DNA from: a virus
Taxonomy: Duplodnaviria > Caudoviricetes
DNA length: 43,329 nucleotides
IMG/VR virus record: IMGVR_UViG_3300016471_000283
Span: 1 to 43,329 of that record
Strand: one strand, 5' to 3'
Shown: piece after piece, positions 18,983 to 43,329 of the stretch
How the letters are laid out: every line of letters starts with the position of its first letter
How positions within the stretch are numbered: the stretch's first letter is position 1
The notes under the pieces: model-generated
What the model saw: only the letters and a program-made list of their open reading frames with translations
Told to the model about the DNA's origin: nothing
The model's database searches: none
Made by a program: the position numbers and the translations under genes

Positions 18983-18994
18983 AAATTGAGAGTA

Positions 18995-23039: not shown

Positions 23040-23040
23040 T

Positions 23041-24953: not shown

Positions 24954-27900
24954 ATGTCCAATAATTATAGAATTAAAACTAAAATAGGTGTTGATAGACA
25001 TGTAAATTTACAATTAGATCAAGATTTTGATCAACTGGAAATACTATCATTAAAGATAAGACAAGAAGATGTATATCCAAGATTTTGTTCGGATTATGGC
25101 GTTGTTGCTGGTAGAGTTTTAGTAAATGATGGATATGGAGTCCCAAATGTTAAAATTAGTATATTTGTTCCTTTAGATCAAATAGACCTAAATAATCAAA
25201 TAATAGCAGATTTATATCCATATAAAAATATAACTGATTTAAATGATGATGGTTATAGATATAATTTATTACCATATCAAAAACAACATGGAGGTCATAC
25301 ACCTACAGGTACTTTTCCATCAAAACAAGACATCGTTACCAATCCTGCGCTAGTTGAAATTTATGATAAATATTATAGATTTTGCGTAAAAACAAATGGT
25401 AGTGGTGATTTTATGATAACAGGAGTGCCTTTAGGTGAGTGGCAACTTGTTATGGATTGTGATTTATCTGATATTGGACCATTTTCAGTCTCACCTCAAG
25501 ACTTGGTTGATATAGGATTAGCAACACTAGAACAAATTGATGGAAATAAATTTTCATCGTCAAATAGTTTATCACAATTACCTCAGATTATTAATCAAAT
25601 TCAAACTATACAAATTGATCCATTTTGGGGAGACCCAAACTTATGTCAGATAAAAATAACAAGACAAGATTTTAATTTACAAGATTCAGGCGTAAGAATA
25701 AGACCAACCGCATTGTTTATGGGTTCTTTATTTACTAATGTTGATGAACAAAATATTAGTAAAAGATGTAGACCAACAAAAGGCATTGGAAACTTGTGTA
25801 ATCTCAAATCAGATACAGGCGAAATAATTGCAATAAGACAAACAATTTTTAATGATGATTCTGGTTATCCAATACTCGAACAAGCGTCTTTACCGAATGG
25901 GGGTAAAGTAATTGATGAAGACGGAACATTTTTATTGAATGTTCCTATGAATATGGATTATGTCACAACAAATGAATTTGGTGAACAAATTATTAGTTTA
26001 GATCCCACAATTGGTATACCAACTACAGGAAAATACAGATTTAAGATAAAATATGATCAGCCATCTACATTTGAAAAAAGAGAAATAAGGAGAGGATATT
26101 TTTTAGTGCCAAATATAAAAGAGTATGGATGGACGCAAAACCCGAGTCAAGATCCTGCCTATCAAAAATTGAACAATTCTCAGAACTCTAAAAATTATAA
26201 AATGTTCCAAAGTTCATATTATTTTGGACTTGATTGGAGTGGATATACAAATGGTTTTGATCAAAATGAATTGATTAATAGAGTTAATGAAATAATAAAC
26301 TGTGACGATACTTTTTTTAAAATTAAATTTAATAAAGTTTATACTACCACACAATTAATTGACAATTTTAAAAGTGGAAATCATCAAAGATTTGTTGCAA
26401 TAAAAGATATCTCTGACAACACATGTGAAAGTGAAATAAATAAATTTCCAGCGACTGACGCTAGTTATAAGTTTGATTTTATATTTTTCATTACAAATTT
26501 ATTAATTAGTATTATTAGTTTAATTTTTTTGTTTTTAATTCCAATAACTCATATTATTTCACTTCTTTTAACATTTATTAGAGAGCTTTTGATTCTTATT
26601 ATAGTACCAATCTCACGTCTTGTTTATAGAATATGTAATTTTGCTAGAAAAATTGGTTTTAGAGTAAAATGTAAAAAACCAATGACTGCTAGAGAAATAA
26701 GAAAAAGATTTCCGTCTTTAAAAAAAATTAAAATACCAATCTTAACATATCCAGATTGTGAGGCGTGTGACTGTTCAGGTGAAGATTTAGACAATGGTGA
26801 GGGTTTTGATGATACAAGTTGTAATGCGGATTTGAATGTTTCTACTAATTGGTCAGCACCACCACAACGAGATGAAAACGACAAAAGAGAATACATAGAA
26901 CTAGACAGAATTCAATACATGTGGGCCGGTTGGGGCTATGATGATGTGGAAGAAAGAGGATACCCCTTTCAAGAGAGAATCCCTCATGCATGGAGTAAAG
27001 GACAGGGGTGGAGGTCAGATTGGCGTTATTTTGTAAATTGTTTACCACCTTGGGAAATTTTAAATCAATTTTCTCTCAAAGGAAATTATTTTCTTGAAGG
27101 ATTTAACGCTAGTAAAATTGGTGTCACATTTAATCCTGATTACAATATTGGAAAACAACACTTCGACAATGTCGTTGCACTATTAGTGGATGATCAGTGT
27201 TTTACATCATTATCTGGACAAACTTTACTTTCGTTTCAAAACCCAGTTTTATCTAAAGATATAAATGCGGCAAATGTAATTTCTGGACTTACAATGACCA
27301 ATGGTACTATAGAGGTTTCATATGCTAATTTTAATAATATGCTTCTTCCAGGGTCTACTACGGTTTACAATATAGGTAGTGGAGGAACACCATCATTTAG
27401 TGCTGCTAGTTATTATTTTGCTTCTGACATAGAATATTTTCAAGTCATTACCGGTATGTCTTGGAGTCAATTTTCTAGCATAAATAGAGCAACTTCAAAC
27501 GAATTTAGTTTAGGTGAACGACTTACTAAAAGGTTTACACTATATTACGATCCAGAAGGATTTCAAACCGGGGCGCCTTTTGATGACCCATCCTTGAATA
27601 ATTATTTAAATTATTATAAAGGCGAAGGAGGATTATACATAATATTCATGGTTAGAGGTGTTGATCCGTTTAGCGGAAAACACAAAGTAAAATATGATCT
27701 TTCTAACATTTTTGGCCGTACAACTCCAAATGAAGTTGTTGTCGTTGGTAATTATTATTTAAACATACCAATACAACCAGGAGGACGATGTGTTAGACAT
27801 GATCAATTAACATCTAATAGTCAAGTACAAAATGATGGTAATAATCCAAATGTTAACATAAAAATATATTTTGATTCTTATTTATTTACACCAGGTAATG

Positions 27901-29876
27901 ATTGGCAGTCATATCAAACAGATCTACACTTATATTATTCTTCACTAGATAAAGAACAACTTAATAGGTTTTATCCTGCTGGTGCTAACTTTTCTTTAAA
28001 CACTTTTGAGTTTGCGCCAAACGGACTTTCTGATAGATTGATGACTGTGGCATATCAGGATCAGAATTCGTATTTACAGTGGGGAGAATATATCGAAGGT
28101 GGTTCATGTATTGCATATCAAGATACTCAACTTAGAAGCCCTCAACAAGATAGAGCAAGACCTTGGGCATATTTCGGACCATCTTACATAAACGGATCAT
28201 ATTCAATTCAACCGACGCCATCAAATAGACCATTATTGACAATGAGCGATCGATTTGCTTTGGTGATGAGAACTGATAGATTACCAACTGGTACTGATTT
28301 AGATACTTTATTTAATAATACATTTTCTTTTCAGTGTAGTCAAAATTTAGGTTATTATTTTATATCTGAATTTGGAGGTACTAGTATTATTTTGGGAGAT
28401 TTAATACCAGATGATGTGGATGCGGAATTAATTGATGATGTAATTACTGGTAATACCACACAACAAATTTTGGGAAGCTTAACTTGTCAAGGATTAAGAG
28501 ATTTGGACTGTTATCAATTAAATGGTGGAACAGTAACCGTTTTACCAAAAGAAAATGAGTGTAATACAAATACAAGTCAAAATTTACCAGTTATTACAGA
28601 TGGTTGTTATAGTTTGATAAATGTGCCGTTTTTTTCTTTATTTGGTCGTAACAATGATTTTACCATTTTAAATGAATGGAAACTTAGGTTTAGATCAACA
28701 TTTGCTTTATGTAGAGGTTTGATATCTCAAAATTTTAATAATTCTTGGATAAACGGATCTTTATTTGCGTTTCCTTTTAGTTCTAATATATTTTTTGATA
28801 ATAAAAATAAACCATATATTAGAAAAGAACTTATGTTTACTAATTTAGGCCAACAAGTAGAATATGCATTTTGTGGAGTACAAATTGCATATGAAGAACA
28901 ATCGAGTAATTTTTATTACAGATCAAGTCCATATAGTTTAACAAAAGGTTTCATAGGGTCATCATACAGTTTTTTTAATAGACAATTTAACTCTAAATAT
29001 TTAAAATATCCTACATCAATGGTTGATTTAGGACCTCAATATAGGTGGACTAAAGATGTATATTACTCAGATGAATATTTTGGGTATATTATGGATGAAT
29101 TAGAACCAACCACTTATGCACCTACAGAAAATTTAAATTCTTTATTTGCGTTATCTAGAATTGTAAATGCAAATATATTTTTTTCTGTCGGTATTGCCAA
29201 ATCTCTTTTTTCAAGACCGACAAGAAAAATAGATGGGGATTACGCACAAATGATTCAGATTAATTCTCAATATGGAATAAATCCATTTAATCCTGAAAAT
29301 TACGAAGACACATCAGGGTCAACATCACCAATTTATATTGCGGTTTCACCTAGTATTAGTCAAATTATTGGAACACAAAATACTGTATTTGGAATTTTTT
29401 ACACAGGTAACACTTTTGATAGAGATTTGATTTCACCTAGAAGAATAAATTACACACTAACAGGTAGTGTAGCTGATTTTAAATCAGATATTTTACCACT
29501 TACAAATCAAAAAGTACCTTTTTATTTTTGGCGTAACTTAGGTTATGACACTAGTGTTAATTATAATTTTCCATCATCTATTTTTGGTACAGAAAAAAAT
29601 AACTGGGTAACAGATAAAGATATATTTTCTCCTTATGAATATCAAAGAATTAATAGATTTTACTTTCCTTCATTTAGGGGTGGGAATCAACAAGTTCAAA
29701 ATTCATTTGGGTATGTTTATCAAACAAATCAGACTGGCGGGAATAACCCTAATATAGTTCAAGGAACATCAAATTACGAAACTATAACATCTGGACCGTA
29801 TTATTTCTACTTTGGTATAAAAAACGGCGCAACCGCAATTGATAAATTTAGACAAAAATATATTCCTTCTGAATAA
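24954..29876 (+). CDS. Large putative virion/baseplate-associated protein with N-terminal carboxypeptidase-regulatory-like beta domain and an internal hydrophobic segment
   Basis: 1640 aa; GVVAGRVLVNDGYGVPNVKISIF...KTNGSGDFMITGVPLGEW; about 45-aa hydrophobic stretch; located in the baseplate cluster. Confidence 0.6.
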   Translation: MSNNYRIKTKIGVDRHVNLQLDQDFDQLEILSLKIRQEDVYPRFCSDYGVVAGRVLVNDGYGVPNVKISIFVPLDQIDLNNQIIADLYPYKNITDLNDDGYRYNLLPYQKQHGGHTPTGTFPSKQDIVTNPALVEIYDKYYRFCVKTNGSGDFMITGVPLGEWQLVMDCDLSDIGPFSVSPQDLVDIGLATLEQIDGNKFSSSNSLSQLPQIINQIQTIQIDPFWGDPNLCQIKITRQDFNLQDSGVRIRPTALFMGSLFTNVDEQNISKRCRPTKGIGNLCNLKSDTGEIIAIRQTIFNDDSGYPILEQASLPNGGKVIDEDGTFLLNVPMNMDYVTTNEFGEQIISLDPTIGIPTTGKYRFKIKYDQPSTFEKREIRRGYFLVPNIKEYGWTQNPSQDPAYQKLNNSQNSKNYKMFQSSYYFGLDWSGYTNGFDQNELINRVNEIINCDDTFFKIKFNKVYTTTQLIDNFKSGNHQRFVAIKDISDNTCESEINKFPATDASYKFDFIFFITNLLISIISLIFLFLIPITHIISLLLTFIRELLILIIVPISRLVYRICNFARKIGFRVKCKKPMTAREIRKRFPSLKKIKIPILTYPDCEACDCSGEDLDNGEGFDDTSCNADLNVSTNWSAPPQRDENDKREYIELDRIQYMWAGWGYDDVEERGYPFQERIPHAWSKGQGWRSDWRYFVNCLPPWEILNQFSLKGNYFLEGFNASKIGVTFNPDYNIGKQHFDNVVALLVDDQCFTSLSGQTLLSFQNPVLSKDINAANVISGLTMTNGTIEVSYANFNNMLLPGSTTVYNIGSGGTPSFSAASYYFASDIEYFQVITGMSWSQFSSINRATSNEFSLGERLTKRFTLYYDPEGFQTGAPFDDPSLNNYLNYYKGEGGLYIIFMVRGVDPFSGKHKVKYDLSNIFGRTTPNEVVVVGNYYLNIPIQPGGRCVRHDQLTSNSQVQNDGNNPNVNIKIYFDSYLFTPGNDWQSYQTDLHLYYSSLDKEQLNRFYPAGANFSLNTFEFAPNGLSDRLMTVAYQDQNSYLQWGEYIEGGSCIAYQDTQLRSPQQDRARPWAYFGPSYINGSYSIQPTPSNRPLLTMSDRFALVMRTDRLPTGTDLDTLFNNTFSFQCSQNLGYYFISEFGGTSIILGDLIPDDVDAELIDDVITGNTTQQILGSLTCQGLRDLDCYQLNGGTVTVLPKENECNTNTSQNLPVITDGCYSLINVPFFSLFGRNNDFTILNEWKLRFRSTFALCRGLISQNFNNSWINGSLFAFPFSSNIFFDNKNKPYIRKELMFTNLGQQVEYAFCGVQIAYEEQSSNFYYRSSPYSLTKGFIGSSYSFFNRQFNSKYLKYPTSMVDLGPQYRWTKDVYYSDEYFGYIMDELEPTTYAPTENLNSLFALSRIVNANIFFSVGIAKSLFSRPTRKIDGDYAQMIQINSQYGINPFNPENYEDTSGSTSPIYIAVSPSISQIIGTQNTVFGIFYTGNTFDRDLISPRRINYTLTGSVADFKSDILPLTNQKVPFYFWRNLGYDTSVNYNFPSSIFGTEKNNWVTDKDIFSPYEYQRINRFYFPSFRGGNQQVQNSFGYVYQTNQTGGNNPNIVQGTSNYETITSGPYYFYFGIKNGATAIDKFRQKYIPSE

Positions 29877-29877
29877 T

Positions 29878-31620
29878 ATGGACATTCAAAATTATTTAGT
29901 GGTTAAACCTGATTTGTTGAATGTTTCAGCACCACAAACTGATATTAGTATTAATTTACATTTAACTGAAAGTAAATGTCAAATCACCGAATATGACCAA
30001 ACTTCAAATATTAGTTTATTCGATGTTTTTTACAATGAAAGACAACAATCAACAATTTTTAGGCCTATTATTAAAATATCTTATGTTTATGACAATAATA
30101 TTGTAGGATATTGTTCAAACAATGGGTGGTCTAATTATTTAAATAATTTATATTATATTAAACCTTCAGAATCCATTGTCTCTGGACAATGGAGTGGACT
30201 ACCATCACATCAAGAGTTTGAATTTATAAGAACCGACATAAAAAATACTCAACTAAATAATACAGATTTTTTAGGATTTATAACTAAAAGTTCCTCAACA
30301 TACAATTGGGCGGTCAGACTTTCATACCCTTTTGAAAATGTGTATAATGTTAGAATGTCGTACGACTTCAAACTATCGTCAGCATTTCAATGGGTTGCTA
30401 GTGATGGAATACCATTTATTATATCTATTGGTGTGGACAATGGTTTGCAAATACTTCAATTTAGTTGTCCTGTAAAACACAATCTTTCAGTTGGAAATTA
30501 TGTAGAACTATTACCAAACTTTATTTATAATAGTGGTAATACATATCAAGTTTATAGTTTAGGAAATAACACATATGGTTCTGATGAGTACATATTTAAT
30601 CTTTATAATTTAGGTTATACTGGTAATACTTTTTTTTCTGGTAAAACTGGCACTTTAAGAAAAATTATAGACATTAATAATCCACAAGAGACTAAATCTA
30701 GATATTACATAAGAAAACATAGAATTTTAACTAATGATGAAGACACTATAATAACTAGAAATGGGTTTGAAGAAAATTCATATGCAAATAGAGCCGTTTA
30801 TCAATTATCGGGAGCAACACCTAATGGTGTGGCAAATATTTTTACATACCAAAGCTCATATACTTACAACGCAACATTTGAGAAAGATTTTGACATATCT
30901 AATAGAATAGACAATAATGGCAAACCTATTACAGAAATATTTGTGTCATTTCAGTGGTGTGGATACATGGGATGGCACAATCAATTACAGAGAGGATGGC
31001 AATTTAATATGACAAGTGGAACAACCAATTCATGGTTTAATTTTTCAAATTCTGATTCAATAGAAAGTAACTTAAAAAAATATTACACAAGGACTGAAAG
31101 ATCTTTAAATACTTCACCACTAAATACCTTTCAATTTACAGTAAATTTACCTAAAAAAAGTGGTGATACTATATTTGGTGATTTTTGTGAATATAATGAC
31201 ATAGAACAATTAGAAAGAGTAATATCTCCGTATATGAATAAATTTTCATATAATCAAACTATATTTACGACTGATGTTACGACTAATCAATCAAATCCAG
31301 ATGGATTTTATTATCAAGTACATTTTCCAATTAAAATAAGAATTTTCTCAACATATCTTGAGTCAGCGCCTCAACCTTCTATAAATTCTGTTCCAAATTA
31401 TTCTTTTTTTTCAGAAAATCAAAATGAATGGATTTGGCGAGATTTATATGATTATGGTTTTATAGATGGTGATGGCCGAGGACTTGACATTCCTTTTTTA
31501 AATGATGCACATTATCCATACAATAATATAATTTTTAAATTGTATTCAGATGAGTCATCTTTTGTAATTCCTGATTTTTATCAAATAACGATTGAACCTT
31601 TAAGTGACCCCTGTGAATAA
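29878..31620 (+). CDS. Putative structural protein (580 aa)
   Basis: ATG 29878 lies 1 nt after the upstream TAA; rich in [ST]GxT motifs; structural cluster. Confidence 0.65.
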   Translation: MDIQNYLVVKPDLLNVSAPQTDISINLHLTESKCQITEYDQTSNISLFDVFYNERQQSTIFRPIIKISYVYDNNIVGYCSNNGWSNYLNNLYYIKPSESIVSGQWSGLPSHQEFEFIRTDIKNTQLNNTDFLGFITKSSSTYNWAVRLSYPFENVYNVRMSYDFKLSSAFQWVASDGIPFIISIGVDNGLQILQFSCPVKHNLSVGNYVELLPNFIYNSGNTYQVYSLGNNTYGSDEYIFNLYNLGYTGNTFFSGKTGTLRKIIDINNPQETKSRYYIRKHRILTNDEDTIITRNGFEENSYANRAVYQLSGATPNGVANIFTYQSSYTYNATFEKDFDISNRIDNNGKPITEIFVSFQWCGYMGWHNQLQRGWQFNMTSGTTNSWFNFSNSDSIESNLKKYYTRTERSLNTSPLNTFQFTVNLPKKSGDTIFGDFCEYNDIEQLERVISPYMNKFSYNQTIFTTDVTTNQSNPDGFYYQVHFPIKIRIFSTYLESAPQPSINSVPNYSFFSENQNEWIWRDLYDYGFIDGDGRGLDIPFLNDAHYPYNNIIFKLYSDESSFVIPDFYQITIEPLSDPCE

Positions 31621-32431
31621 AATTCAAGTATTATTTAATAACAGACAAAAAGAGATTGTCATTCCGTTAGAATCTTCTTGGGAGATATACGGACAACAAG
31701 ATGGTATTGAACAATATGAAGCAAATGTAATTGAGGAAATTTTAAATCAAGATCAAGATTTTGAAGTTTCTAGATTTGAACACAAATCATATAATACAAC
31801 GACAAAAGAAGCTACAGCGATACATTATGAATTTTGGCTCTATAATCCATCTTTAATTAATTCAAATCCAATAATACCATCACTATCTGGAACATGGGAA
31901 AACTCATACACGTCTAAATTTTCAAACAATGAAATCTATTTTCAAAGAGCTAAATTTAAAAAATCTTTTTGGAAACTTGATTTTTATGATTCACCTAGTT
32001 CAATTCGACAACAAAATTATATTACAATAATTTTACCAACGCACCAAGGTTTAACAGAGTTAAAACAAATTAGTCTTTTTCAAAATGTTTTATTAAAAAA
32101 ACCAAAATATGTATTAGATTACATTGGAGACAAGGAGGGGTTTTTTATTTATTGGCTCAAAAAACGTAATTATTTAAATATTGATACATTTTATATGTCC
32201 GCAAAATTTTTTAATTCTAATAATGGACAATTTGTTAGAATGTTAAATAGATCTCAAACACAATTAACCAATATCTCAAACCCATTTACTTTTAATCAAG
32301 ATGAGTATTTTTATTACCAAGTAAAATTAGATTATCTAACACAAAAATATCAAGTATTTAGTTTTCCTGGAATTGTTAGAGTTGGAACTGAAACGCAACC
32401 TATAAAATGGTATGAATATGTAAATCCTTAA
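31613..32431 (+). CDS. Putative structural protein
   Basis: GTG start at 31613 (or 31604) overlapping the upstream gene end; long clean ORF. Confidence 0.6.
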   Translation: MNKIQVLFNNRQKEIVIPLESSWEIYGQQDGIEQYEANVIEEILNQDQDFEVSRFEHKSYNTTTKEATAIHYEFWLYNPSLINSNPIIPSLSGTWENSYTSKFSNNEIYFQRAKFKKSFWKLDFYDSPSSIRQQNYITIILPTHQGLTELKQISLFQNVLLKKPKYVLDYIGDKEGFFIYWLKKRNYLNIDTFYMSAKFFNSNNGQFVRMLNRSQTQLTNISNPFTFNQDEYFYYQVKLDYLTQKYQVFSFPGIVRVGTETQPIKWYEYVNP

Positions 32432-32434
32432 CAC

Positions 32435-33535
32435 ATGGAATCTCAAGTTATCAAGATTAACATTTCTCCTGAATTTATTACCACAAACAAGACAATCGTT
32501 CAAGTTTCTGGCGAAACTTATGGAATATATTCGGGCATTACACAAATGTTAACAAGTGGTCCAGATAACACATCATTATTTACAGGTTTTACGTTTCCGA
32601 TTTTACTTACTCAAACTATTGTAGATATAGGATACTATTCAGTATTTGATGGCGCATTGTCACAAATAAATGTTGTAACTAATTTTATTTTTTCATCAAC
32701 AACAAATAATCCATATACTTGGTACATATTTAATACATCTGATTTTGAATTTAAAACTTATTTATCTATATCAAATTATATTGTAGATTGGGGGGATAAC
32801 TCACCAATTGAAGTGGTGTCAGGTTATAGCCCAAATTCAATAGCTCATACGTATCCAACAAATCCAAGTGGTTATACAATCACACTTCAACAAATAAGTA
32901 TATTTGGAATTAATACAATACTTAAACGAATTCAAACTCCGTATCTAATTGTACCAATTTTAGACCCAAAAGGTGAAGCATTTTTTACCCCTATAATTGG
33001 AAATTGGACTGGTACACCTATTTCTTATAATTATATTTTTAGTGGTGACGCAATAAATAATGTACAAGCTCAAGTCACATCCGCGTATACACCAGTTCCG
33101 TTTACAGTAAGTGGGATCACAAAATCAAGACTGACAGAATTATACATATATGGTAGACCACCAAATTATCAAGTTAATACTCCTGTATTCCAAAATGGTA
33201 ATATATTTGGTGTTATTACAGATATAAATGTAGTGTTTACCGCTTACACAATTCAAGATGTTAACTATGTTGATTATGCTGGCAAAGGATTTGGAGACGT
33301 TGGACCGACTCATTATTTTTTAGCTTCAAGAGGACTAACTGCCGATAATTTAGTAGCCGAACCTTTAGTTAAAGATGAATTATTATTAGGGATAGTGTCA
33401 GAACCCGAAGTGCAAGCGGACATTTTTATAGACAGAGGAAAAAATTCTGCATTAGAAAGAGTTCAACGACTTGGAGAGGTAGATGGGATTAGAGATTTGA
33501 CAACATATGGATATGGATTTTTCGACTTTTCTTAA
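32435..33535 (+). CDS. Putative structural protein with PKD-like motif
   Basis: 366 aa; YIVDWGDNSP...IAHTYP...YTITL resembles a PKD/Ig-like beta-sandwich signature. Confidence 0.6.
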   Translation: MESQVIKINISPEFITTNKTIVQVSGETYGIYSGITQMLTSGPDNTSLFTGFTFPILLTQTIVDIGYYSVFDGALSQINVVTNFIFSSTTNNPYTWYIFNTSDFEFKTYLSISNYIVDWGDNSPIEVVSGYSPNSIAHTYPTNPSGYTITLQQISIFGINTILKRIQTPYLIVPILDPKGEAFFTPIIGNWTGTPISYNYIFSGDAINNVQAQVTSAYTPVPFTVSGITKSRLTELYIYGRPPNYQVNTPVFQNGNIFGVITDINVVFTAYTIQDVNYVDYAGKGFGDVGPTHYFLASRGLTADNLVAEPLVKDELLLGIVSEPEVQADIFIDRGKNSALERVQRLGEVDGIRDLTTYGYGFFDFS

Positions 33536-33548
33536 ATTAAATTTTTGA

Positions 33549-33556
33549 TATTTATA
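33549..33556 (+). promoter_or_regulatory. TATTTATA upstream motif
   Basis: 13 nt before ATG 33570, followed by an A-run. Confidence 0.5.
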
Positions 33557-33569
33557 AAAAAAAAACAAA

Positions 33570-34478
33570 ATGGCAATAGGAACATATGGAACAATACGAC
33601 CAGCGGATTGTTCTCCAGAGGATGTGGAAATCCTCATGAATTATACACCATCTAGAGATGTGACTAATGATTTTGTACTTACAAAATTAGATGCTAGTCA
33701 AATTTTAAGACCATATTTTAACAATAATCAAACTGGTGGAAATACAAATGAAATATTAGGCGGCTTATACAATTTAAGATTACCGTCTCAAACATTTACA
33801 CAACTTGGAATTTATACGTTATACATTAGACCAGCACAAATTAGAACAACAATTACAGATTGTAATGTTTTATCGGCGTTACCAAATGTTAAAGGTATTA
33901 TAATTGACCTTTCTAATGTGCCTTCTCAGTTTGTTAACAAATTTCAAGCACAAGGATTAGTCGGGTTTAGAGTTGAGTATTTAGATAATACTGGAAGTAA
34001 AATTCCAAATTTTTTTCGTATAGTTACATCTAATTTTTTTTGTGAAGCAATTGTTCAAAATTTAACTAATACTTCACAAAAAGCAATTCGATACCGCTAT
34101 AGTGAAGGTCAAACAAATTTGGTATTTTGTACGTTATCTCCGAGTGCATCTCCGAGCAATAATCCTGCGGCGACACCATTCATAGGTCAACCAGGACAAA
34201 CTATAATTTTTTCAAATACATTTTTTAATCCTTTGACTGTTGAGATACAAGTCACACAATATGATTTAGAAACATTAAATATTGCTTTTTATGGAAATCA
34301 AACTAAATCTATGGAAGATGGTATCTATACGATTTATGATTCACAAAATAATATCTATTCTCAATTCAATCTGTATGAGATTAAAGACGAATTTGATAAT
34401 CCGTTATATGAAGTAAAACAAAATAGAGGTGAAAATATTGATTTTAGTAAATCATTTCAATTAATTGCGGCTCAATAA
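33570..34478 (+). CDS. Putative baseplate/structural protein (302 aa)
   Basis: Clean ORF with upstream motif, immediately before the gp7/gpI-like gene. Confidence 0.65.
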   Translation: MAIGTYGTIRPADCSPEDVEILMNYTPSRDVTNDFVLTKLDASQILRPYFNNNQTGGNTNEILGGLYNLRLPSQTFTQLGIYTLYIRPAQIRTTITDCNVLSALPNVKGIIIDLSNVPSQFVNKFQAQGLVGFRVEYLDNTGSKIPNFFRIVTSNFFCEAIVQNLTNTSQKAIRYRYSEGQTNLVFCTLSPSASPSNNPAATPFIGQPGQTIIFSNTFFNPLTVEIQVTQYDLETLNIAFYGNQTKSMEDGIYTIYDSQNNIYSQFNLYEIKDEFDNPLYEVKQNRGENIDFSKSFQLIAAQ

Positions 34479-34482
34479 ATAA

Positions 34483-37400
34483 ATGATTAGGAGATTTTTT
34501 AGAACAAACGGAGCTTCAGGAGCTGACACGCCATTTGATAACCTTGTTGGTTTACAAACGGTCACTGGAGGAGGTCTAACTCAAGGTAATTTTCAATTTG
34601 ATGTTTCTTTATCCGAAAAAAATAATAGAACGTTTAATATTGGAGTTTTTAGTGAACCAATATCTTTAGATAGTTTAGGACTTATATCTATTGATGAGTC
34701 TAGAGAATTACAGTCTAAAGAATATCAAGTTTTTCCAAATATTGATCTTTCATTAGTTACAAATTTTACATTATATGGTTCATTAAAAAAACGTCTAGAA
34801 GTTTCTATTCAAAAAATATTAGGACATTTTCCAGCTGGAATTGTCATTAATTTTTATAATTTGGATTTAACAACTGGTAATACCGCATATAATATTTCAT
34901 ACAATGTCGAGTCCGATCTTACAACTTTTACAATAAATGTTGAAAAAATACAAAATCCATTTTCTATAGATTTTACTTCAAGATCTAGAATAAATTTACA
35001 AAATAGAGAAACTGATTTTTCACCAATCAGAGATTTAACAAACAGATTTAGAGATTATGTTTTAATTGTCAATTCAACTTCATATACGGTAATAGATTTT
35101 AAGCCTTCAAATAATTTATTTTCAGGTACTCTGATTATTAAAGTTTTAGGTAGACCATTTTATGATACTGTTACTATTTCAAATCTAATAATTCGACCAA
35201 ATGATTTGATTGTTGAAAAAATATTTTCTGAAGAGTTTGACGAAGTAACTCAATTTTTATTAAATAGATTAGTACTTCCAAAATACACAGCAAATTTTGT
35301 TTTACCAGTAGAAGGTAATAATGGAGTTGTAGGATTAGAAACACAAAGTGTTACATTTCCACTTGATGGTTCTTGGAATTTAGATATAAGAACAAACAAT
35401 TTTACAAATTATTTAGAACTTTTGAATAAAATTGGAGAACAATTTGACCAATTTAAAACTAATCTAATAACTAGATTTTTAACTACTAATGCTTTTTTAG
35501 AATTTGATACATCAGAGCAAAAGGTGTTTAAAATACTTCAAATATATGGTAGGAGCTTCGATCAAATAAAATTGTATATTAGCGCGTTAGCTAACATGAC
35601 AAATGTTCAATATCAGTTAGGTAGTACAATTCCTGACGAGTTACTTAAGTATTTGGCTGAAACTTTAGGGTGGAAAATCAATATATCACCAATTGTCCAA
35701 AATGAATATTTGGAATCAACATTATCAACTACAACAGATAGCCAATATGAAGGGTATTCTCGCGAACTAACAGAAAATGAAATCAATTATCAATTTTATC
35801 AAAATTTAATTATTAATTCGGCATATTTGTACAAATCTAAGGGGACTAGAAAATGTATTGAATTTTTATTAAGATTTTTAGGAATACCAGAGGCCATTAC
35901 GGAATTTAACGAATTTGTCTATGTTGTTGATCAAAAAATTGATATGAGTCAATTTTATAATCAACTCTATGATATTACTGGAGGAACTTATGTTCAAGAA
36001 GTTACAGTTCCAGTAACAGATGATGTTTATCAATTATTTGGAGTATCTTACACAGGATTTAATTCATCTACAATTGTTAATTCAGTAAGTGTAAATTTTG
36101 ATAACTACGCGGTTGACGAGTTTGGTTATCCCTACGCTCCAGTAGAAACCGATGAATATTATTTTGAAAAAGGTTCTGGTTGGTTTGAATCAACTCCACA
36201 ACATAGAAGCCCTGAAATAGTAATTTCTACTACGTCAGTTTTTACTGGTTCTAGTCCTTTTGTACAAACAGAGTTACAACCTTTTTCTTATGGACAAGAA
36301 TATTTTTCACAATGGAGATCTTTTCCTTATATGAATTTAGGATTTAATTTAAAATTAGTTAGAGATAACAAAAAATCGTGGCAACCTTCAGTTTTAAGGA
36401 AAAACTCTGATGGTGGTTTTAATGCTTATTACATTGTACAAAATGATAAATTAATAATAAATCTTAAAAATATAGAAATTTTTTTAAATCCTGGACAAGG
36501 TCTTTTATATGATGTTTGGTATATGTCAAGGAATTTTAACTACCCAATTCCTAATTCAGGTATGACCCCAGCTTATCCTAGTTTGGGGAGTTATAATTGG
36601 AGTTTTATTAATCCTGAGGCAAATAAAAAAACATTTTTTGAATTTCAAATAGATTTTATACGTTCTACAATTAATGTGAGAGATAGGTGGTTTAGTTCTG
36701 ACGGTAAAACAAGTGGGTATTCGTCTTTATTAAATATTTTTTATAATTTTTTACAATCTCAAGAAAATGTCGGTGTTTCTAATTTTAATTTTAATTATCA
36801 AAAACTTATAGAATATACTGAGGGAATTGGGTCTAATTGGGTAAGAGTTATTGAACAATTTATTCCCGCGACCACAATTTGGCAAACAGGTATTAGATTT
36901 GAAAATTCACATATGCAAAGACAAAAATATTTATGGAGAAAACAACAACAATGTTATTTAGTTCCAATTTATGTGACTCCACCACCACCTAGTAACACTA
37001 GAACTCCTAGTAGTTCTCCAAATATAACCCCAACTCCTAGTAAAACTAGAGCTCCTAGCAGTTCTCCAAATCCAACTCCCGCATTTACTCCAACTCCTAG
37101 TAAAACTAGAGCTCCTGGTACTTCTCCAAATCCAACTCCCGCATTTACTCCAACTCCTAGTAAAACTAGAGCTCCTGGTAGTTCTCCAAATCCAACCCCT
37201 ACACCTACCCCTACTAAAAATGTTGGATCTGTAATAACGTGTACAATAGGTACTATATCTGGGTGTATTGGAAATATAGTCGAGTTACCAGTAACAATTC
37301 AAACGAATATTGGTATTGGAGCAATTAGTTTAGCGATTGATTTTGATAGTGCAAAGTTAAGAGGATTTAGTCCTGTTGGAAACCCACCAGAACCATCAAT

Positions 37401-37701
37401 AACCTCTTTAAGTCCTCTATTAGCTGGAGCTGGGATTGCCAATGTAACCACATTTACTGGACAAGTACCAAATCCGCCATTTAATGCAACAACTCGAACC
37501 CAATTTAGATTTGCGTGGTCTAGTTTAACAGCATTTCAACAGAATGGTATATTATTTAAAATTAGATTTCAAATTTTAGCCGTAGGAAATCATATTGTAA
37601 AATTTGATACAGCAACTGGAGGAAACTGTGAGATTACAGATATAGATGCAATAGTTCAACCAACAACATTTATAAATGGAAGTGTAACATCAAATTGTTA
37701 G
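34483..37701 (+). CDS. Baseplate wedge protein (T4 gp7 / P2 gpI-like) with Pro/Thr linker and C-terminal cohesin-like domain
   Basis: IPDELLKYLAETLGW and AYLYKSKGTRKCIEFLLRFLG are gpI/gp7-type motifs; the last about 155 aa resemble a cohesin. Confidence 0.7.
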   Translation: MIRRFFRTNGASGADTPFDNLVGLQTVTGGGLTQGNFQFDVSLSEKNNRTFNIGVFSEPISLDSLGLISIDESRELQSKEYQVFPNIDLSLVTNFTLYGSLKKRLEVSIQKILGHFPAGIVINFYNLDLTTGNTAYNISYNVESDLTTFTINVEKIQNPFSIDFTSRSRINLQNRETDFSPIRDLTNRFRDYVLIVNSTSYTVIDFKPSNNLFSGTLIIKVLGRPFYDTVTISNLIIRPNDLIVEKIFSEEFDEVTQFLLNRLVLPKYTANFVLPVEGNNGVVGLETQSVTFPLDGSWNLDIRTNNFTNYLELLNKIGEQFDQFKTNLITRFLTTNAFLEFDTSEQKVFKILQIYGRSFDQIKLYISALANMTNVQYQLGSTIPDELLKYLAETLGWKINISPIVQNEYLESTLSTTTDSQYEGYSRELTENEINYQFYQNLIINSAYLYKSKGTRKCIEFLLRFLGIPEAITEFNEFVYVVDQKIDMSQFYNQLYDITGGTYVQEVTVPVTDDVYQLFGVSYTGFNSSTIVNSVSVNFDNYAVDEFGYPYAPVETDEYYFEKGSGWFESTPQHRSPEIVISTTSVFTGSSPFVQTELQPFSYGQEYFSQWRSFPYMNLGFNLKLVRDNKKSWQPSVLRKNSDGGFNAYYIVQNDKLIINLKNIEIFLNPGQGLLYDVWYMSRNFNYPIPNSGMTPAYPSLGSYNWSFINPEANKKTFFEFQIDFIRSTINVRDRWFSSDGKTSGYSSLLNIFYNFLQSQENVGVSNFNFNYQKLIEYTEGIGSNWVRVIEQFIPATTIWQTGIRFENSHMQRQKYLWRKQQQCYLVPIYVTPPPPSNTRTPSSSPNITPTPSKTRAPSSSPNPTPAFTPTPSKTRAPGTSPNPTPAFTPTPSKTRAPGSSPNPTPTPTPTKNVGSVITCTIGTISGCIGNIVELPVTIQTNIGIGAISLAIDFDSAKLRGFSPVGNPPEPSITSLSPLLAGAGIANVTTFTGQVPNPPFNATTRTQFRFAWSSLTAFQQNGILFKIRFQILAVGNHIVKFDTATGGNCEITDIDAIVQPTTFINGSVTSNC
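37030..37200 (+). repeat. 60-bp coding tandem repeat (about 3 copies; PTPSKTRAPxSSPNPTPAFT)
   Basis: Lines 37021, 37081 and 37141 align in register; a degenerate shorter copy lies at about 36985-37029. Confidence 0.95.
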
Positions 37702-37710
37702 ATACTAAAT

Positions 37711-38211
37711 ATGAGAATTGTAAATCCAAATAATAGAGTTTTTGTTTTAAACTATAACAGTGTAGTTTCTGGACAATTATTTTCGTTTAATTGTAATTAT
37801 CAATATGTAACTACAAATATATTTCCTTGGTCAAGGACTTCATCTAGTGTAACATCTTTTTCAGATATTCTTTTTATTTTATTAAATAATTATCTTATAG
37901 AACAAGAAATAGTTTTAAATGATTGTTTGACAAGTTCTTTAGTATCGTTTTGGTATGTCGATGTTTCAATAAACAATACTAGATTAGTCCATTTTCCATT
38001 TTTTAATGGTTATGGAACACAACAAGTACCTAATGACAATCTATGGAGATCTGCAGTAAATTCTGCGTTATCAGAATTACTGAATTTTAATTATTATTAT
38101 TTTTTTGTTGGTGATGTTGTAACTATTTATAATCTTTTGTGCCCTAATACACAAAATTTAATAAGTGTTGATATTAATATAGGAATAAATTTTATAATTG
38201 AATGTAATTAA
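37711..38211 (+). CDS. Hypothetical structural protein (166 aa), in frame with the upstream gene
   Basis: TAG ATA CTA AAT ATG junction; shares motifs with a domain of the next ORF. Confidence 0.65.
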   Translation: MRIVNPNNRVFVLNYNSVVSGQLFSFNCNYQYVTTNIFPWSRTSSSVTSFSDILFILLNNYLIEQEIVLNDCLTSSLVSFWYVDVSINNTRLVHFPFFNGYGTQQVPNDNLWRSAVNSALSELLNFNYYYFFVGDVVTIYNLLCPNTQNLISVDINIGINFIIECN

Positions 38212-38214
38212 AAT

Positions 38215-41200
38215 ATGGCGGCACCACTAACACTTTCATATTCTGTCACAGGAACTTGTCAAAATGTAAACCCCGGGTCTGTTCAAATTTATGCTAGTGG
38301 GGGAATAGAACCATATTTTTACACTTGGTTAGATCCGTTACAATTTACTAGTTCTTTTGTTACAGGATTAGGATCTGGGGTTTATAACGTATTAGTAAAT
38401 GATAGTGCCGCCCCAGTAAATAATTCTATTTATTTAAGTGTTTCTGTATCAAGTGGAATATGTTTAAGTTTGGTTACATCTGCAAATACAACTTGTGGCG
38501 ATTCAAATGGTTTTATAGTTGTTTCAGCAAAAACCGATTACACTCAGATTAATTATTTTCTTATAGATAATAATAATAATAATAATATTATATCTTCACT
38601 TGAAAATAATCAATTTATTGCAACATTTGATAATTTAAGTGCTGGGACATATACCGTATTAGCAAAAAGTTTGGCAGGTTGTTCTGCTAAAACAGAAACA
38701 ATTATTATAAATTCAGGTAAAACTATAAATTTTGGTTTTTATACTGTAAATAATACTTCTTGTGATTTGAATTCTATTGGTAAAATTTTTATTACAGGTC
38801 TTACAGGTAATGGTCCATTTATTTATAATTGGAGTAATGGTTTTACTGGGTCATCAATAACAGGATTAACTGAGGGGGTATATGGTTGTACTGTAACAAG
38901 TGCGGATAATTGTGTTTTAACTAAAACAACTTCTGTAGGGTTAGAACCCTCATTAGGCCTAGGATTTTGGAGCGCATTAACAACACCAACGTGTTTCAAT
39001 AATGATGGATCTCTTGTATTAAAAATAACAGGTGGAACGGGTCCTTATTATTATTCGGCCTCGAATAGTAATATTATAATCTCTTACGATCAAACACAAA
39101 CATTTACAAACTTACCTGAAGGAATATTCACTGTAAATGTCACAGATGCTACATTTTGTAAACAAATTTTTTCTACAAATATTGATAATTTAAATACAAT
39201 AAATAATGTAACTTTTATAGTTAATGATTCTTTTTGTAGTTTGACTAATGGATCAATAATAATTCAAATATTCGGCGGGACACCACCATTTACTTATACA
39301 TTATCAGGGGTTAATAGTTCAGAAATTGTTACAACTAACAGTGTTGAATATAGTTTTAATAATTTGAGTTCAGGCGATTATAATATTACTGTTACAAATA
39401 TAGGGTTATGTACTTATACAAAAAATTTTACAGTTTTAACTCAGAATAAATTTACACATAATATTAATGTAATTGCCACTACTTGTGGAAACAATAATGG
39501 TATTTTGACAATAGATATAAGTTCTGGTGGTACACCACCATATATGTATGAACTTTCTAATGGATTTGCAACTCAAACTCCACAAACAATTTATTCTTTT
39601 TCTAATTTATCTTCTGGACCATATTTTTATAGTGTCACTGATGTTGATGGTTGTCGACAACAAGGTAGTATTTTTATTTCTGCGTCCGAAATGGTTAATT
39701 TTGAACTTTATTCAGTTCCTTGTTTATCTGGTAATAATGGCTCAATAACAGTTTTAATAAGTAGTGGATCTCCGCCATTTATATTTAATTGGTCAAACAA
39801 TGTAATAGATAATCCACAACAAATTTATGTTACTGGTTTAACCGCTGACACATATTCATTATTGATAATAGATGTAAATGGGTGTAGTTATTCTGCAACA
39901 ACAGTAGTTGATTGTTTTGATATTATATCAACATATCAAGTATATGGTATGGCCCAAAATAATTTTTCATATATTTCTAATTCTAGAAGAGGAATGTTAG
40001 AGATGTTAAATCAAGGTTACGCTAATTTAACATCAGGATTAGGTGGTTGCTTACTGAGTGCAACTACATTTACAATACAAAGTCAAATACAAGATACTTT
40101 AATATCTAACTTATTTTTTACAGGAGCTTCGTTATTACAAATTCCTAGTGATACTCAGTGGTATGATGCTGTTTATAGTCTTTTTTCACCATATGCTAAA
40201 GTATTAACTATAAATCAACAAACAACTAATTTAACAATTGAGATACCAAATAATCCTCCGAATCCTGTATTTACTGTTAATTTATTAATTGACTATGTAA
40301 TAAATTGTTTTTCAACACCAACACCGACTAACACACCATCTTTTACACCGACTAACACACCATCTTTTACACCGACTAAAACAACCACTATAACACCTAC
40401 AAGTAGTTTTGGTAATTTACCAACTAATACCGTCACACCATCACAAACTGTTTCTATTTCTAATACAATTACACCAACAATTACACCAACAATTACACCA
40501 ACAATTACCAACACAATAACTCAAACAATTACAAATACTAAAACAGGAACACCAACTATAACTAATAGTCAAACACCGACACTTTCACTGACTTGTTTAG
40601 GTGTCACAGTTAACTGTTATGAATATTTATTAAGTAATATTGGATACGCATCAACCACTTATCAATATAAAGATTGTTCAAATACAACTCAAATTATAAC
40701 AATACTTAGTAATAATTATAGTGTAATTTGTGCCATCCCAAATACAATTTCAAGAATATCTGGAGCGGTTACACCATTCCCTGAAATAATTGATGGTGGT
40801 ACTACTTGTGGTTCTGTGTGTTTACCTATTACACCAACACCAACAAATACAATAGGGATTACACCAACACCAACAAAAACATTAACTAATACGCCTTCAA
40901 ACACGTTAACTAACACACAAACACCAACAAATACTTATACTCCTACTGAAACACCAACAAATACACAAACACCAACAAATACTTATACTCCTACTGAAAC
41001 ACCAACAAATACACAAACACCAACAAATACTTATACTCCTACTGAAACACCAACAAATACACAAACACCAACAAATACTTATACACCATCTAACACTGTA
41101 ACAAATACAAATACACAAACACCAACAAACACTATAACACCAACGACAACAAGTTCGATAACTCCGACACCAACTAACACTATAACAAATACTGTAACAA

Positions 41201-41475
41201 CCACTGTAACAAAAACAAGTGTTACTTCTTATAGCTATAGTAATTTAGGTACTGGTGGTGGTGATATTGAGGCTTGTGGCGAAAGCGGTAATACATTTTA
41301 TGGAATAAGATCGTCATTTGCTAATCTTCAGGAGAATGACATACTTTATATTGACTCTAATTTGACCACACCGGCGGTTGGATTCACTTATGTGTCAGAT
41401 AGTTCTATCTATTACGAGGTTAATGGTACTACTGGGTCAATTGTAGGGATCCAGGCTATGTGTACATTATTTTAA
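38215..41475 (+). CDS. SprB-repeat and Thr/Pro mucin-like putative fibre/adhesin
   Basis: Repeated C...NGSI.I...GG..PY.Y.W/L...NL..G.Y.V.VTD..GC units over about 570 aa, then long TPT repeats and a small C-terminal domain. Confidence 0.75.
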   Translation: MAAPLTLSYSVTGTCQNVNPGSVQIYASGGIEPYFYTWLDPLQFTSSFVTGLGSGVYNVLVNDSAAPVNNSIYLSVSVSSGICLSLVTSANTTCGDSNGFIVVSAKTDYTQINYFLIDNNNNNNIISSLENNQFIATFDNLSAGTYTVLAKSLAGCSAKTETIIINSGKTINFGFYTVNNTSCDLNSIGKIFITGLTGNGPFIYNWSNGFTGSSITGLTEGVYGCTVTSADNCVLTKTTSVGLEPSLGLGFWSALTTPTCFNNDGSLVLKITGGTGPYYYSASNSNIIISYDQTQTFTNLPEGIFTVNVTDATFCKQIFSTNIDNLNTINNVTFIVNDSFCSLTNGSIIIQIFGGTPPFTYTLSGVNSSEIVTTNSVEYSFNNLSSGDYNITVTNIGLCTYTKNFTVLTQNKFTHNINVIATTCGNNNGILTIDISSGGTPPYMYELSNGFATQTPQTIYSFSNLSSGPYFYSVTDVDGCRQQGSIFISASEMVNFELYSVPCLSGNNGSITVLISSGSPPFIFNWSNNVIDNPQQIYVTGLTADTYSLLIIDVNGCSYSATTVVDCFDIISTYQVYGMAQNNFSYISNSRRGMLEMLNQGYANLTSGLGGCLLSATTFTIQSQIQDTLISNLFFTGASLLQIPSDTQWYDAVYSLFSPYAKVLTINQQTTNLTIEIPNNPPNPVFTVNLLIDYVINCFSTPTPTNTPSFTPTNTPSFTPTKTTTITPTSSFGNLPTNTVTPSQTVSISNTITPTITPTITPTITNTITQTITNTKTGTPTITNSQTPTLSLTCLGVTVNCYEYLLSNIGYASTTYQYKDCSNTTQIITILSNNYSVICAIPNTISRISGAVTPFPEIIDGGTTCGSVCLPITPTPTNTIGITPTPTKTLTNTPSNTLTNTQTPTNTYTPTETPTNTQTPTNTYTPTETPTNTQTPTNTYTPTETPTNTQTPTNTYTPSNTVTNTNTQTPTNTITPTTTSSITPTPTNTITNTVTTTVTKTSVTSYSYSNLGTGGGDIEACGESGNTFYGIRSSFANLQENDILYIDSNLTTPAVGFTYVSDSSIYYEVNGTTGSIVGIQAMCTLF
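40321..40379 (+). repeat. 24-bp coding tandem repeat (about 2.5 copies; TPTNTPSF)
   Basis: acaccgactaacacaccatctttt repeated exactly. Confidence 0.85.
40465..40508 (+). repeat. 12-bp coding tandem repeat (acaattacacca, about 3.7 copies; TITP)
   Basis: Direct inspection. Confidence 0.85.
40921..41084 (+). repeat. 48-bp perfect coding tandem repeat (about 3.4 copies; TPTNTYTPTETPTNTQ)
   Basis: Units start at 40921, 40969, 41017 and 41065 (partial). Confidence 0.95.
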
Positions 41476-41480
41476 ATAAT

Positions 41481-42452
41481 ATGGCATTAATTGAAATATC
41501 ATCAATAACTGGAAATTCACCTTATCAGTTATTTGTTTCCGATGTTTATGGAAACAATGAAACTTTTATTGCGTCTTTTTCGGGGGCAGTTCCACCTTCT
41601 CAATATTTTACGTTACCATCTTTATTTGATACAGCCCCTATTGTGTTAATTAAGGTGATAGACTCTAGTGGGTGTATAACATATCATCAAGCAAGTTGTC
41701 AAGTTATTGTACCGTCACCTACCTTAACACAAACTGTCGGGTTTACACCAACACCAACACTTTCTATTACCCCTATTGTCACAAACTCAACCACACCTCC
41801 TATAACACCAACAATTACACCTACAAATAGTATTACACCAAGTGTAACAATCACTCCAACTGTTACCCCTACACCTTCAACTGTATTCATGTATGCGTAT
41901 TTGTTTATAGAACCATTCTCAGGATCAACCGACATTGGTGACTATATGGCAAATGTGGGTAGTGGTTTCTATGGATTCACAAATGGTTTTGGACCAGACA
42001 CTTCATCACCAAATCAATTTAATATTGATATGAATGAATATGTATCGTATAGTGGTTGGACAAACAACTTCCCTTCTGTCAGAAGTCAATTAATACCAAT
42101 ATCATCAGGAGGTTTAGATTCATTTGGTAATGCAAAAATAGCATACAACTTCACAACACATGAGGTTCCGATTGGAACTGTCGAAGGTCTAGCATGGTAC
42201 ACTTGGATAATTATGACTGGTGATACGGGCGGCGGAATACTTAGATCAATTGGATATACGACAGAAGGAAACCCAAATTCATTAACAAATGTGTTTATGG
42301 ACTCCACAATTTACAATAATACATTTACATATACAGGATCAACTATACCTATTGGGACTTATAGGGTTTATACTACTTGGGCGTCAACACCATTTCAAAT
42401 TGATAATTCATCAACAAATATTTTCTTCAAAGGTGACAAAGTATCCTTCTAA
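41481..42452 (+). CDS. Putative virion appendage protein: two domains joined by a Thr/Pro linker
   Basis: ATG 41481 after the upstream TAA (preferred to 41460); TPT linker at about 41715-41880. Confidence 0.7.
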   Translation: MALIEISSITGNSPYQLFVSDVYGNNETFIASFSGAVPPSQYFTLPSLFDTAPIVLIKVIDSSGCITYHQASCQVIVPSPTLTQTVGFTPTPTLSITPIVTNSTTPPITPTITPTNSITPSVTITPTVTPTPSTVFMYAYLFIEPFSGSTDIGDYMANVGSGFYGFTNGFGPDTSSPNQFNIDMNEYVSYSGWTNNFPSVRSQLIPISSGGLDSFGNAKIAYNFTTHEVPIGTVEGLAWYTWIIMTGDTGGGILRSIGYTTEGNPNSLTNVFMDSTIYNNTFTYTGSTIPIGTYRVYTTWASTPFQIDNSSTNIFFKGDKVSF

Positions 42453-42457
42453 AGTAG

Positions 42458-42465
42458 TATTTATC
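42458..42465 (+). promoter_or_regulatory. TATTTATC upstream motif
   Basis: 4 nt before ATG 42470. Confidence 0.45.
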
Positions 42466-42469
42466 AAAA

Positions 42470-43329
42470 ATGAGTTCTTTATCCTATAATAACCCAAATA
42501 CTCCTTATAAAGTAGGAGTCCAAAGTTCTATTCCATCGACTTCAACGATAGGTACAACATTTAGTGTTTTTGACACTGGTGGTTATATGGAATTTTATAA
42601 TTTATCAGATTTAGTATGGCAATATACTGGTGGTACGGGACAAATAACAGGGGCTACAATCCCAATTAATTTTATAAAAGGTAATGGCACGGCTATAAAT
42701 CCAGATTACTTAGTTTTGAATTCAGACAACATTTCAACAGGTAGAAGACGACTAGGAATGTTGGCCTATGTACAAGAAACAGGATTAATATATCAATTCA
42801 CCATACCAAATTATGATTCATTATGGTCAGCAATAACTGGCTTGACAGGATCATCAGCAATAACGGTAACCGATTTTGCAACAATTGTTCGTGCTAATTC
42901 TCAACCAAGTATTGATTTTATCAATGCATGGACGGGATCTTCGATTGATGGTTATGATGCCCCATGGAGTGGTGCTACTTGGAGAGTATTACCAGGTTCT
43001 TATGCCACAATAACAGGTGGTACTTATTTTTCAGCAACATCGATTCTTGAATTGTATAACACAACTGGTGGCACTGTATCAATACCCGTTGAAGGTATAG
43101 CGGGTACTGCAGGAAGTTCAGGCTCAAGTGGAACAAGTGGATCTTCAGGAAGTTCAGGATCATCAGGATCGAGTGGTTCTTCGGGATCTAGTGGAACGAG
43201 TGGTTCATCAGGAAGTTCAGGAACATCAGGGTCAAGTGGAACAAGTGGTTCATCGGGAAGTTCAGGAATATCAGGTTCATCAGGATCTAGTGGAACGAGT
43301 GGTTCATCGGGAAGTTCAGGAACATCAGG
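42470..43329 (+). CDS. Collagen-like (Gly-Ser-Ser/Gly-Thr-Ser) putative tail fibre, truncated by the window end; absent from the ORF track
   Basis: Manual translation MSSLSYNNPNTPYKVG...SDNISTGRRRLGMLAYVQE...VEGIAGTAGSSGSSGTSGSS... shows no stop before the window end. Confidence 0.88.
   Translation, partial: MSSLSYNNPNTPYKVGVQSSIPSTSTIGTTFSVFDTGGYMEFYNLSDLVWQYTGGTGQITGATIPINFIKGNGTAINPDYLVLNSDNISTGRRRLGMLAYVQETGLIYQFTIPNYDSLWSAITGLTGSSAITVTDFATIVRANSQPSIDFINAWTGSSIDGYDAPWSGATWRVLPGSYATITGGTYFSATSILELYNTTGGTVSIPVEGIAGTAGSSGSSGTSGSSGSSGSSGSSGSSGSSGTSGSSGSSGTSGSSGTSGSSGSSGISGSSGSSGTSGSSGSSGTS
43094..43329 (+). repeat. 9-bp-period Gly-X-Y coding repeat (about 26 triplets, continuing past the edge)
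   Basis: GGN codon every third codon, with X and Y almost all Ser or Thr and varied synonymous codons. Confidence 0.92.

Follow-up and report, generated by a model that had tools for sequence, protein, structure and literature searches.

The protein word [ST]GxT is enriched 4- to 11-fold over chance in the presumed outer particle proteins of the tailed phage represented by IMG/VR record IMGVR_UViG_3300016471_000283 and of its relatives, whereas no enrichment is seen in a sister lineage that shares these genes. The window analysed here is the entire 43-kb contig of this virus (43,329 nt, ~31% G+C). An earlier note on its sequence had proposed the word as a candidate sequon for glycosylation of the virion. 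That sequon-like reading is supported by the sequences compared: the word is lineage-specific, independent of fold, subject to turnover between orthologues and placed in inserted, presumably outer domains, and the family is rich in glycosyltransferases. We regard it as probable that [ST]GxT is an O-glycosylation tag read by soluble phage-encoded glycosyltransferases. A search of the literature outside subscription papers and supplements found no published description of the motif.

Along the window, replication genes are followed by genes for gp25 and a baseplate wedge and then by mostly unannotated large genes, with SprB-repeat, Thr-Pro-stalk and collagen proteins at the end. Most proteins of this module lack a family match (Pfam, PHROG), and they are inferred to be virion proteins from their gene neighbourhood, i.e. 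the gp25 and baseplate-wedge matches. Fifteen of them were pooled (10,273 amino acids, aa, with Thr-Pro tracts and collagen taken out) and found to contain 44 [ST]GxT sites vs 9.9 expected (Poisson P = 1.5e-15; here and below, 'vs' separates observed sites from sites expected from composition). The note had suggested a comparison with shuffled sequences, in which the excess held: SG.T (25 vs 5.0) and TG.T (19 vs 4.8) ranked first and second among ~49,200 gapped di- or tri-residue patterns. Thr occupies position +3 in 44 of the 139 [ST]G sites (13.3 expected), the next most frequent residues occurring 11 times each, and [ST]GxS shows no excess in the window (11 vs 10.3). The excess is a real, protein-level signal. 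An artefact of repeated DNA or of codon use is refuted, and its probability is negligible: the sites show ordinary codon use, with every Thr and Gly codon and both Ser boxes represented, 43 of the 44 12-mers at the sites are distinct, and there are 52 matches on the coding strand as compared with 10 on the opposite strand. The features concerned are the following.

369..5294, + strand: 1641-aa upstream virion-module protein; 3 [ST]GxT sites, alone not significant
5604..12170, + strand: 2188-aa upstream virion-module protein; 3 sites, alone not significant
22578..24882, + strand: genes of the inner baseplate, for gp25 and a gp6-like wedge; 0 sites, an internal contrast of low power
24954..29876, + strand: unannotated 1640-aa protein after the baseplate wedge; 7 sites (residues 429, 754, 777, 809, 1165, 1454 and 1484), no Pfam or PHROG match
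29878..31620, + strand: unannotated 580-aa protein; 6 sites (219, 248, 254, 311, 380 and 428)
32435..33535, + strand: 366-aa protein with PKD/Ig-like domain; 5 sites (25, 33, 50, 145 and 226) plus Ala variants at 211 and 269
34483..37701, + strand: 1072-aa protein with Thr-Pro stalk; 3 sites (131, 499 and 692), alone not significant
38215..41475, + strand: 1086-aa SprB-repeat protein with Thr-Pro stalk; 7 sites, PF13573 in 5 stretches (best 258-285)
41460..42452, + strand: 330-aa protein with Thr-Pro stalk; 4 sites (154, 198, 253 and 292, numbered from the GTG at 41460)
42470..43329, + strand: collagen-fibre protein truncated by the window end; 6 sites within the first 202 aa, 0 in the GSS/GTS collagen tract

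These counts reproduce those of the earlier note for the seven proteins from 24954 onwards (the one at 41460 having been placed there at 41481). The sites that it had reported in the two giant upstream proteins are also present, but number six instead of five. When each protein was tested against 2000 shuffles, three were individually strong, namely 24954 (7 vs 1.12, reached in 0 of 2000), 29878 (6 vs 0.37, 0 of 2000) and 32435 (5 vs 0.57, 1 of 2000); 41460 (4 vs 1.05) and 42470 were marginal alone (P ~0.02), and 369, 5604, 34483 and 38215 were not significant alone (P = 0.10-0.21; expectation for 38215, 4.2). Some sites of 38215 lie in an SprB-type repeat context and are possibly determined by the fold, and the excess remains when 38215, 41460 and 42470 (the SprB, stalk and collagen proteins) are left out (27 vs 6.9). 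Two side arguments of the note fared less well. It had viewed the GSS/GTS collagen tract as a polymer of a related motif; the tract holds 0 [ST]GxT and 23 [ST]GxS, the word that is not enriched in the window. The note's contrast with the replication proteins stands as a count, since they have only 1 site, but is powerless because only 1.32 are expected, too few to reveal a difference.

The closest cultured phages by wedge protein are Flavobacterium phage immuto and Mel-JY01 (~26% identity), and IMG/VR holds many close relatives of the window, near-complete genomes of 295-322 kb among them. Whole records of five relatives contain 138 vs 54.2 (G001), 139 vs 70.4 (G002), 103 vs 30.7 (G003, a record 44% complete), 135 vs 41.7 (G070) and 128 vs 57.8 (G079) [ST]GxT sites. 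Proteins having 3 or more sites at P < 0.02 number 11, 12, 12, 10 and 11, respectively; at the same threshold, control phages have 1 (XacN1), 1 (immuto), 0 (Mel-JY01), 1 (XbC2) and 0 (LR756508, first 260 of 484 kb only). In the family the sheath is among the carriers, the capsid has few sites (2-4) and orthologues of the tube, wedge and terminase have 0. Orthologues of 34483 have 4-13. The excess extends across unrelated folds, as the earlier note had claimed for a sequon with a free x position.

Searching with a profile of the 32435 family retrieved distant homologues, some having as many as 14 sites per 400 aa and a few only 0-1, and one low case led to a sister clade, C, in which gene order is the same as in the tagged family and the wedge is 56-57% identical. 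Eight matched orthologues total 59 vs 8.8, 42 vs 8.1, 49 vs 7.2 and 70 vs 6.4 sites in four tagged genomes and 4 vs 4.8 in clade C; the orthologue of 29878 alone has 13 sites in G070 and 1 in clade C. No substitute motif stood out in clade C among the ~8,000 aa examined per lineage. A tree of wedge proteins (20 rows after dereplicating identical starts from 36) supports clades A (with the window), B and C, which form a trichotomy, so that loss of the tag in C is indistinguishable from its gain in A plus B. Locus searches with P0144 gave only weak unrelated matches, and those with P0224 gave tagged relatives and not P0224's own lineage. The comparison of relatives for co-variation which the note had proposed thus yields a lineage-specific tag, but its link to any one gene hangs on one fragmentary sister clade.

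Sites come and go as units. A set of 23 non-redundant 32435 homologues contains 97 sites vs 11.8; S/T and G/A swaps occur within the same column, columns are gained and lost, and a few sites are nearly invariant. Where the [ST][GA] head is conserved, Thr at +3 is retained with a frequency of 0.90, and where the head is lost, with a frequency of 0.45, as against 0.85 and 0.78 for control position +2 and 0.46 and 0.44 for +4; the corresponding values for +3 in the sheath are 0.73 and 0.26 (all from pairwise counts, the pairs not being independent events). Over 351 sites the first position is nearly even (162 S, 189 T), position -1 is enriched in Ile, Tyr and Leu, and Lys and Arg are depleted nearby. 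The variant with Ala for Gly is common in clade A (103 vs 23.4 in the outer region of the sheath) and shows no excess in G070 (16 vs 20.0).

In residues 111-350 of 32 sheaths the Gly form occurs 147 times vs 36.4 expected from local composition, and in residues 351-700 it occurs 32 times vs 11.1; the core segments 1-110 and 701-1064 have 0, the C-terminal core being the part with a sequence match to T4 gp18. The reversed word stays below expectation in the outer region (28 vs 36.4) and is in excess in the middle region (32 vs 11.1). The sheath model matches sheath structures (T4 gp18M, Z 10.9, root mean square deviation 5.1, 230 residues aligned), and the 12 sites on the G001 model fall in 3 loops, 2 strands and 7 junctions. 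The sites are thus confined to inserted domains that presumably face outwards, a position which we take from the architecture of T4 gp18, and are absent from the presumed tube-facing core. In five capsid proteins, 19 of the 21 [ST][GA]xT sites fall in residues 114-343, between conserved blocks matching T4 gp23 (numbering unaligned). The predicted model of 32435 is poor (mean predicted local distance difference test score 55), with PKD-like matches.

A second word was found in two cultured phages which had initially served as [ST]GxT controls. Immuto (MW353175) and Mel-JY01 (PP395634) have an excess of [ST]GS (116 vs 46.2 and 101 vs 36.5), in 10 and 11 proteins, respectively. It takes the form hydrophobic-[ST]-G-S, is dispersed over proteins of the virion region and includes the sheath (7 vs 1.3 and 4 vs 0.9). 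Both phages share a GT4-GT4-GT2 glycosyltransferase (GT) cluster, and the GT4 tested from it is missing in the tag-less sister LR756508 and also in XacN1 and XbC2.

No glycosyltransferase gene was found on the window's own contig in a family scan, as the earlier note had stated; in near-complete relatives, where it had suggested looking, such genes are many. G001, of which 125 of the 322 open reading frames were scanned, has GT60, GT2, GT4, GT9, GT10, GT11, GT25, GT61 and Fringe-like enzymes and a large set of sugar genes. Sequence comparison narrows the writer to two candidate genes, for a GT60 and for a GT2 with a PF13712 domain, neither of which is proven. In G001 the GT60 gene lies at 78722-79969, and the PF13712 domain takes up residues 1-220 of the protein at 89160. 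The core GT60 of the family (218 bits on PF11397) is present in all 5 records at least 90% complete and in 14 of the 31 records searched, and it was not found in clade C fragments covering both places where relatives carry it. G070, in which the tag is densest and just one protein is rich in Thr-Pro, keeps GT60, which counts for GT60 as the tag enzyme. The PF13712 GT2 occurs in the same 5 of 5 records and in G079 (18 of the 38 records searched), in none of 6 named control records and in none of 6 clade C fragments (which do not cover its second known location), and no match was found among 50,697 phage records; its C-terminal partner domain varies. Searches of PDB sequences gave nothing useful for the GT60 or GT-B enzymes and one weak uncharacterised match for PF13712.

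Other candidates, and two apparent natural tests, were set aside. An Aah/TibC-type gene (TIGR04414) is present in 2 of the 4 near-complete tagged genomes and also in Mel-JY01, which lacks this tag. Three core glycosyltransferases (G001 86644, 94644 and 95699) are not sufficient, since clade C retains them (45-50% identity) and has no tag. The G001 gene at 268619 (no Pfam match) is found in G001 and clade C and not in G002, G070 or G079. G079 seemed to be a tagged genome free of GT60, but a gap in it spans the place where G002 has the gene, which makes it uninformative. The empty GT60 slot of clade C, first seen as a natural knockout, is weak evidence because the PolB-side slot is empty in tagged genomes too.

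A few observations on these enzymes and their neighbourhood may be recorded. At G001:281666-283957 lies a fusion of a GT4 with an Aah/TibC-type heptosyltransferase that scores above the TIGR04414 cut-off. It is adjoined by a second copy, which is partial, and the gene is also found in G049, G052 and Mel-JY01. Only 4 of the 50,697 phage records match GT60: XacN1 (AP018399 222135-223508), Xoo-sp13, CM1 and RAS14. G050, a 219-kb record rated 88% complete, has a GT60 74% identical to that of G002 and is otherwise unrelated, with no recognisable virion genes in the comparison. The core GT-B orthologue at G064:81378-82592 has a single internal TAA stop, and contig L557, which belongs to this phage family (core GT-B, PF13712 and 11 sites in a 314-aa protein), is filed within an archaeal genome bin. 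The Thr-Pro stalks of 34483-37701, 38215-41475 and 41460-42452 are mucin-like and are present in clades A and B and not in the clade C fragments, which have poly-Thr proteins next to another glycan cluster; the stalks are likely a second acceptor class. The large subunit of ribonucleotide reductase (window 18986-22537) contains an intein with a LAGLIDADG domain; its G003 orthologue is ~820 aa, and G001, G002 and G079 have a different, shorter enzyme at the same place.

Several observations weigh against [ST]GxT as a glycosylation tag, or against its proposed writers. Control phages show a 1.3- to 1.7-fold genome-wide background of the word, and non-virion proteins are not depleted of it (27 vs 26.6 in G001). 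Clade C consists of fragments of 7-21% completeness and offers a single contrast, on a trichotomy. The hydrophobic bias at -1 is also compatible with a strand-to-turn preference. XacN1 has a GT60 (46% identity) and Thr-Pro tracts with no tag excess (84 vs 65.6, 1 marginal protein), and GT60 is found in 0 of 69 PolB loci, many of them motif-positive with the slot intact. Bacterial PF13712 homologues sit in ordinary glycan clusters with untagged neighbours (193 vs 142 at 80 loci), where the sole strong case is a contig of this phage family. The tagged family itself is uncultured and known from sequence alone.

The alternative which we consider the least improbable, though still unlikely, also makes the word a modification tag, with a host enzyme as writer or a non-sugar adduct (phosphate, acyl or methyl), clade C having lost the tag on a shift of host or habitat. 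One clade C record is labelled marine metagenome, and none of the phage genes is proven to follow the tag. A host enzyme methylating a phage tail protein has been reported (PMC13445384). A host writer sits less well with the two tag-concordant core glycosyltransferases and large glycan islands that the family keeps, or with the parallel concordance of tag and phage gene in the [ST]GS lineage. Also against it, the sequon of Bacteroidota hosts, D-(S/T), is not enriched in the window (72 vs 86.6). Slightly less probable is an unmodified docking motif, by which a decoration protein, chaperone or fibre of the phage would bind many sites on the particle. Any reader protein would fit the lineage specificity, turnover and outer location, but the sites occupy strands, turns and junctions and can be densely clustered, with only a few residues between them, and the free exchange of S and T points to the hydroxyl as the relevant group. 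No candidate binder was found, and no search aimed at one was made.

A structural preference of Ser/Thr/Gly-rich beta domains (an ST-turn or hairpin cap), amplified by repeats such as SprB, would account for the background in control phages, the 38215 sites within SprB-type repeats, the hydrophobic residue at -1 and the few nearly invariant sites. It is largely refuted and rates as the most doubtful of these three alternatives. The same genes and folds give no excess in clade C, and 8 bacterial PKD-repeat proteins matched by the 32435-family profile have 71 vs 72.6 sites, so that the fold is not the explanation. Whether orthologous sheaths carry [ST]GxT, [ST]GS or neither depends on their lineage, a pattern that a preference of the fold leaves unexplained as well. 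In addition, the excess persists without the SprB and collagen proteins, and the reversed word is not in excess in the outer sheath region. The possibility raised in the earlier note, that the sites are turns of one repeated fold, finds no support in these figures.

Taken as an O-glycosylation tag, [ST]GxT can be compared with several known systems. In mycobacteriophages, phage-encoded glycosyltransferases modify particle proteins (Freeman et al. 2023, as cited in PMC12619734 and PMC10877033), and the citing paper puts those glycans at capsid and tail-tube C-termini. Near-complete relatives of the window likewise encode glycosyltransferases; unlike that system, 10-12 proteins share a dispersed four-residue word, which the tube orthologue lacks, and the case is built from sequences. 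For loss of the enzyme there is only a natural contrast, clade C lacking the tag and, in its fragments, GT60 and PF13712. GT60 enzymes of Dictyostelium and Trypanosoma are described as polypeptide alpha-N-acetylglucosamine (GlcNAc) transferases that initiate O-GlcNAc on mucin-type domains, with mucin domains or Skp1 hydroxyproline as known acceptors (PMC8724618). The Thr-rich stalks of the window family resemble mucin-type acceptors, but an [ST]GxT rule is not among the acceptors in the available text of that source, and XacN1 has GT60 without the tag. This cultured Xanthomonas jumbo myovirus, with its GT60 gene ORF334 and at least 2 reported glycoproteins (PMC5852040, available text), differs from the window family in being rich in Thr-Pro tracts and having no [ST]GxT excess; its 14 proteins rich in such tracts are plausible acceptors for the reported glycoproteins, on which the available text maps no sites. 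The Aah/TibC autotransporter heptosyltransferases are described as soluble bacterial protein O-glycosyltransferases acting on Ser in Ser-Gly-type turns at many sites (PMC4358343). G001 encodes a member above the TIGR04414 cut-off, but TibA is modified on Ser only, according to the available text, and the phage homologue is patchy. Moraphages, a published set of 25 genomes of uncultured aquatic jumbo phages of up to 307 kb with predicted Bacteroidota hosts and four core glycosyltransferase groups (PMC12619734), resemble the window family by description in size (G001 and G002, 295-297 kb), habitat and core glycosyltransferases; the available text of that paper describes no motif.

The word [ST]GxT, with Ala for Gly tolerated in one subclade, is scattered over presumed outward domains of ~10-12 particle proteins. 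Under the proposed mechanism, the first Ser or Thr, the two being used about equally, would be the acceptor, and the near-fixed Thr at +3 would serve in recognition. Priming with GlcNAc would fall to the core GT60 and addition of the next sugar to the core PF13712 GT2, an order of steps for which we see near-even chances, and GT60 may serve the Thr-Pro stalks only. Accessory islands would vary the outer glycan, and the particle would thereby gain a sugar coat.

More broadly, and here we stop a little short of thinking it probable, large aquatic T4-like phages may cover the entire surface of the particle with short lineage-specific sequons, [ST]GxT in the window family and [ST]GS in immuto and Mel-JY01, with a dedicated soluble glycosyltransferase of the phage reading each. 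Such a coat would be programmable, cytoplasmic and free of a lipid carrier, and could be gained, lost and swapped. The principle is testable in cultured immuto, which has its own [ST]GS tag. If true, enzyme-tag pairs would be new tools for site-specific glycoengineering, a soluble enzyme being combined with a short portable tag, and modification sites would be predictable from sequence alone. Glycosylation of the virion has been established in few phages and, according to the available texts, affects few sites; if a defined four-residue acceptor were spread over the head, sheath, baseplate and fibres of an abundant uncultured family, coating of particles with glycans would be a common trait.

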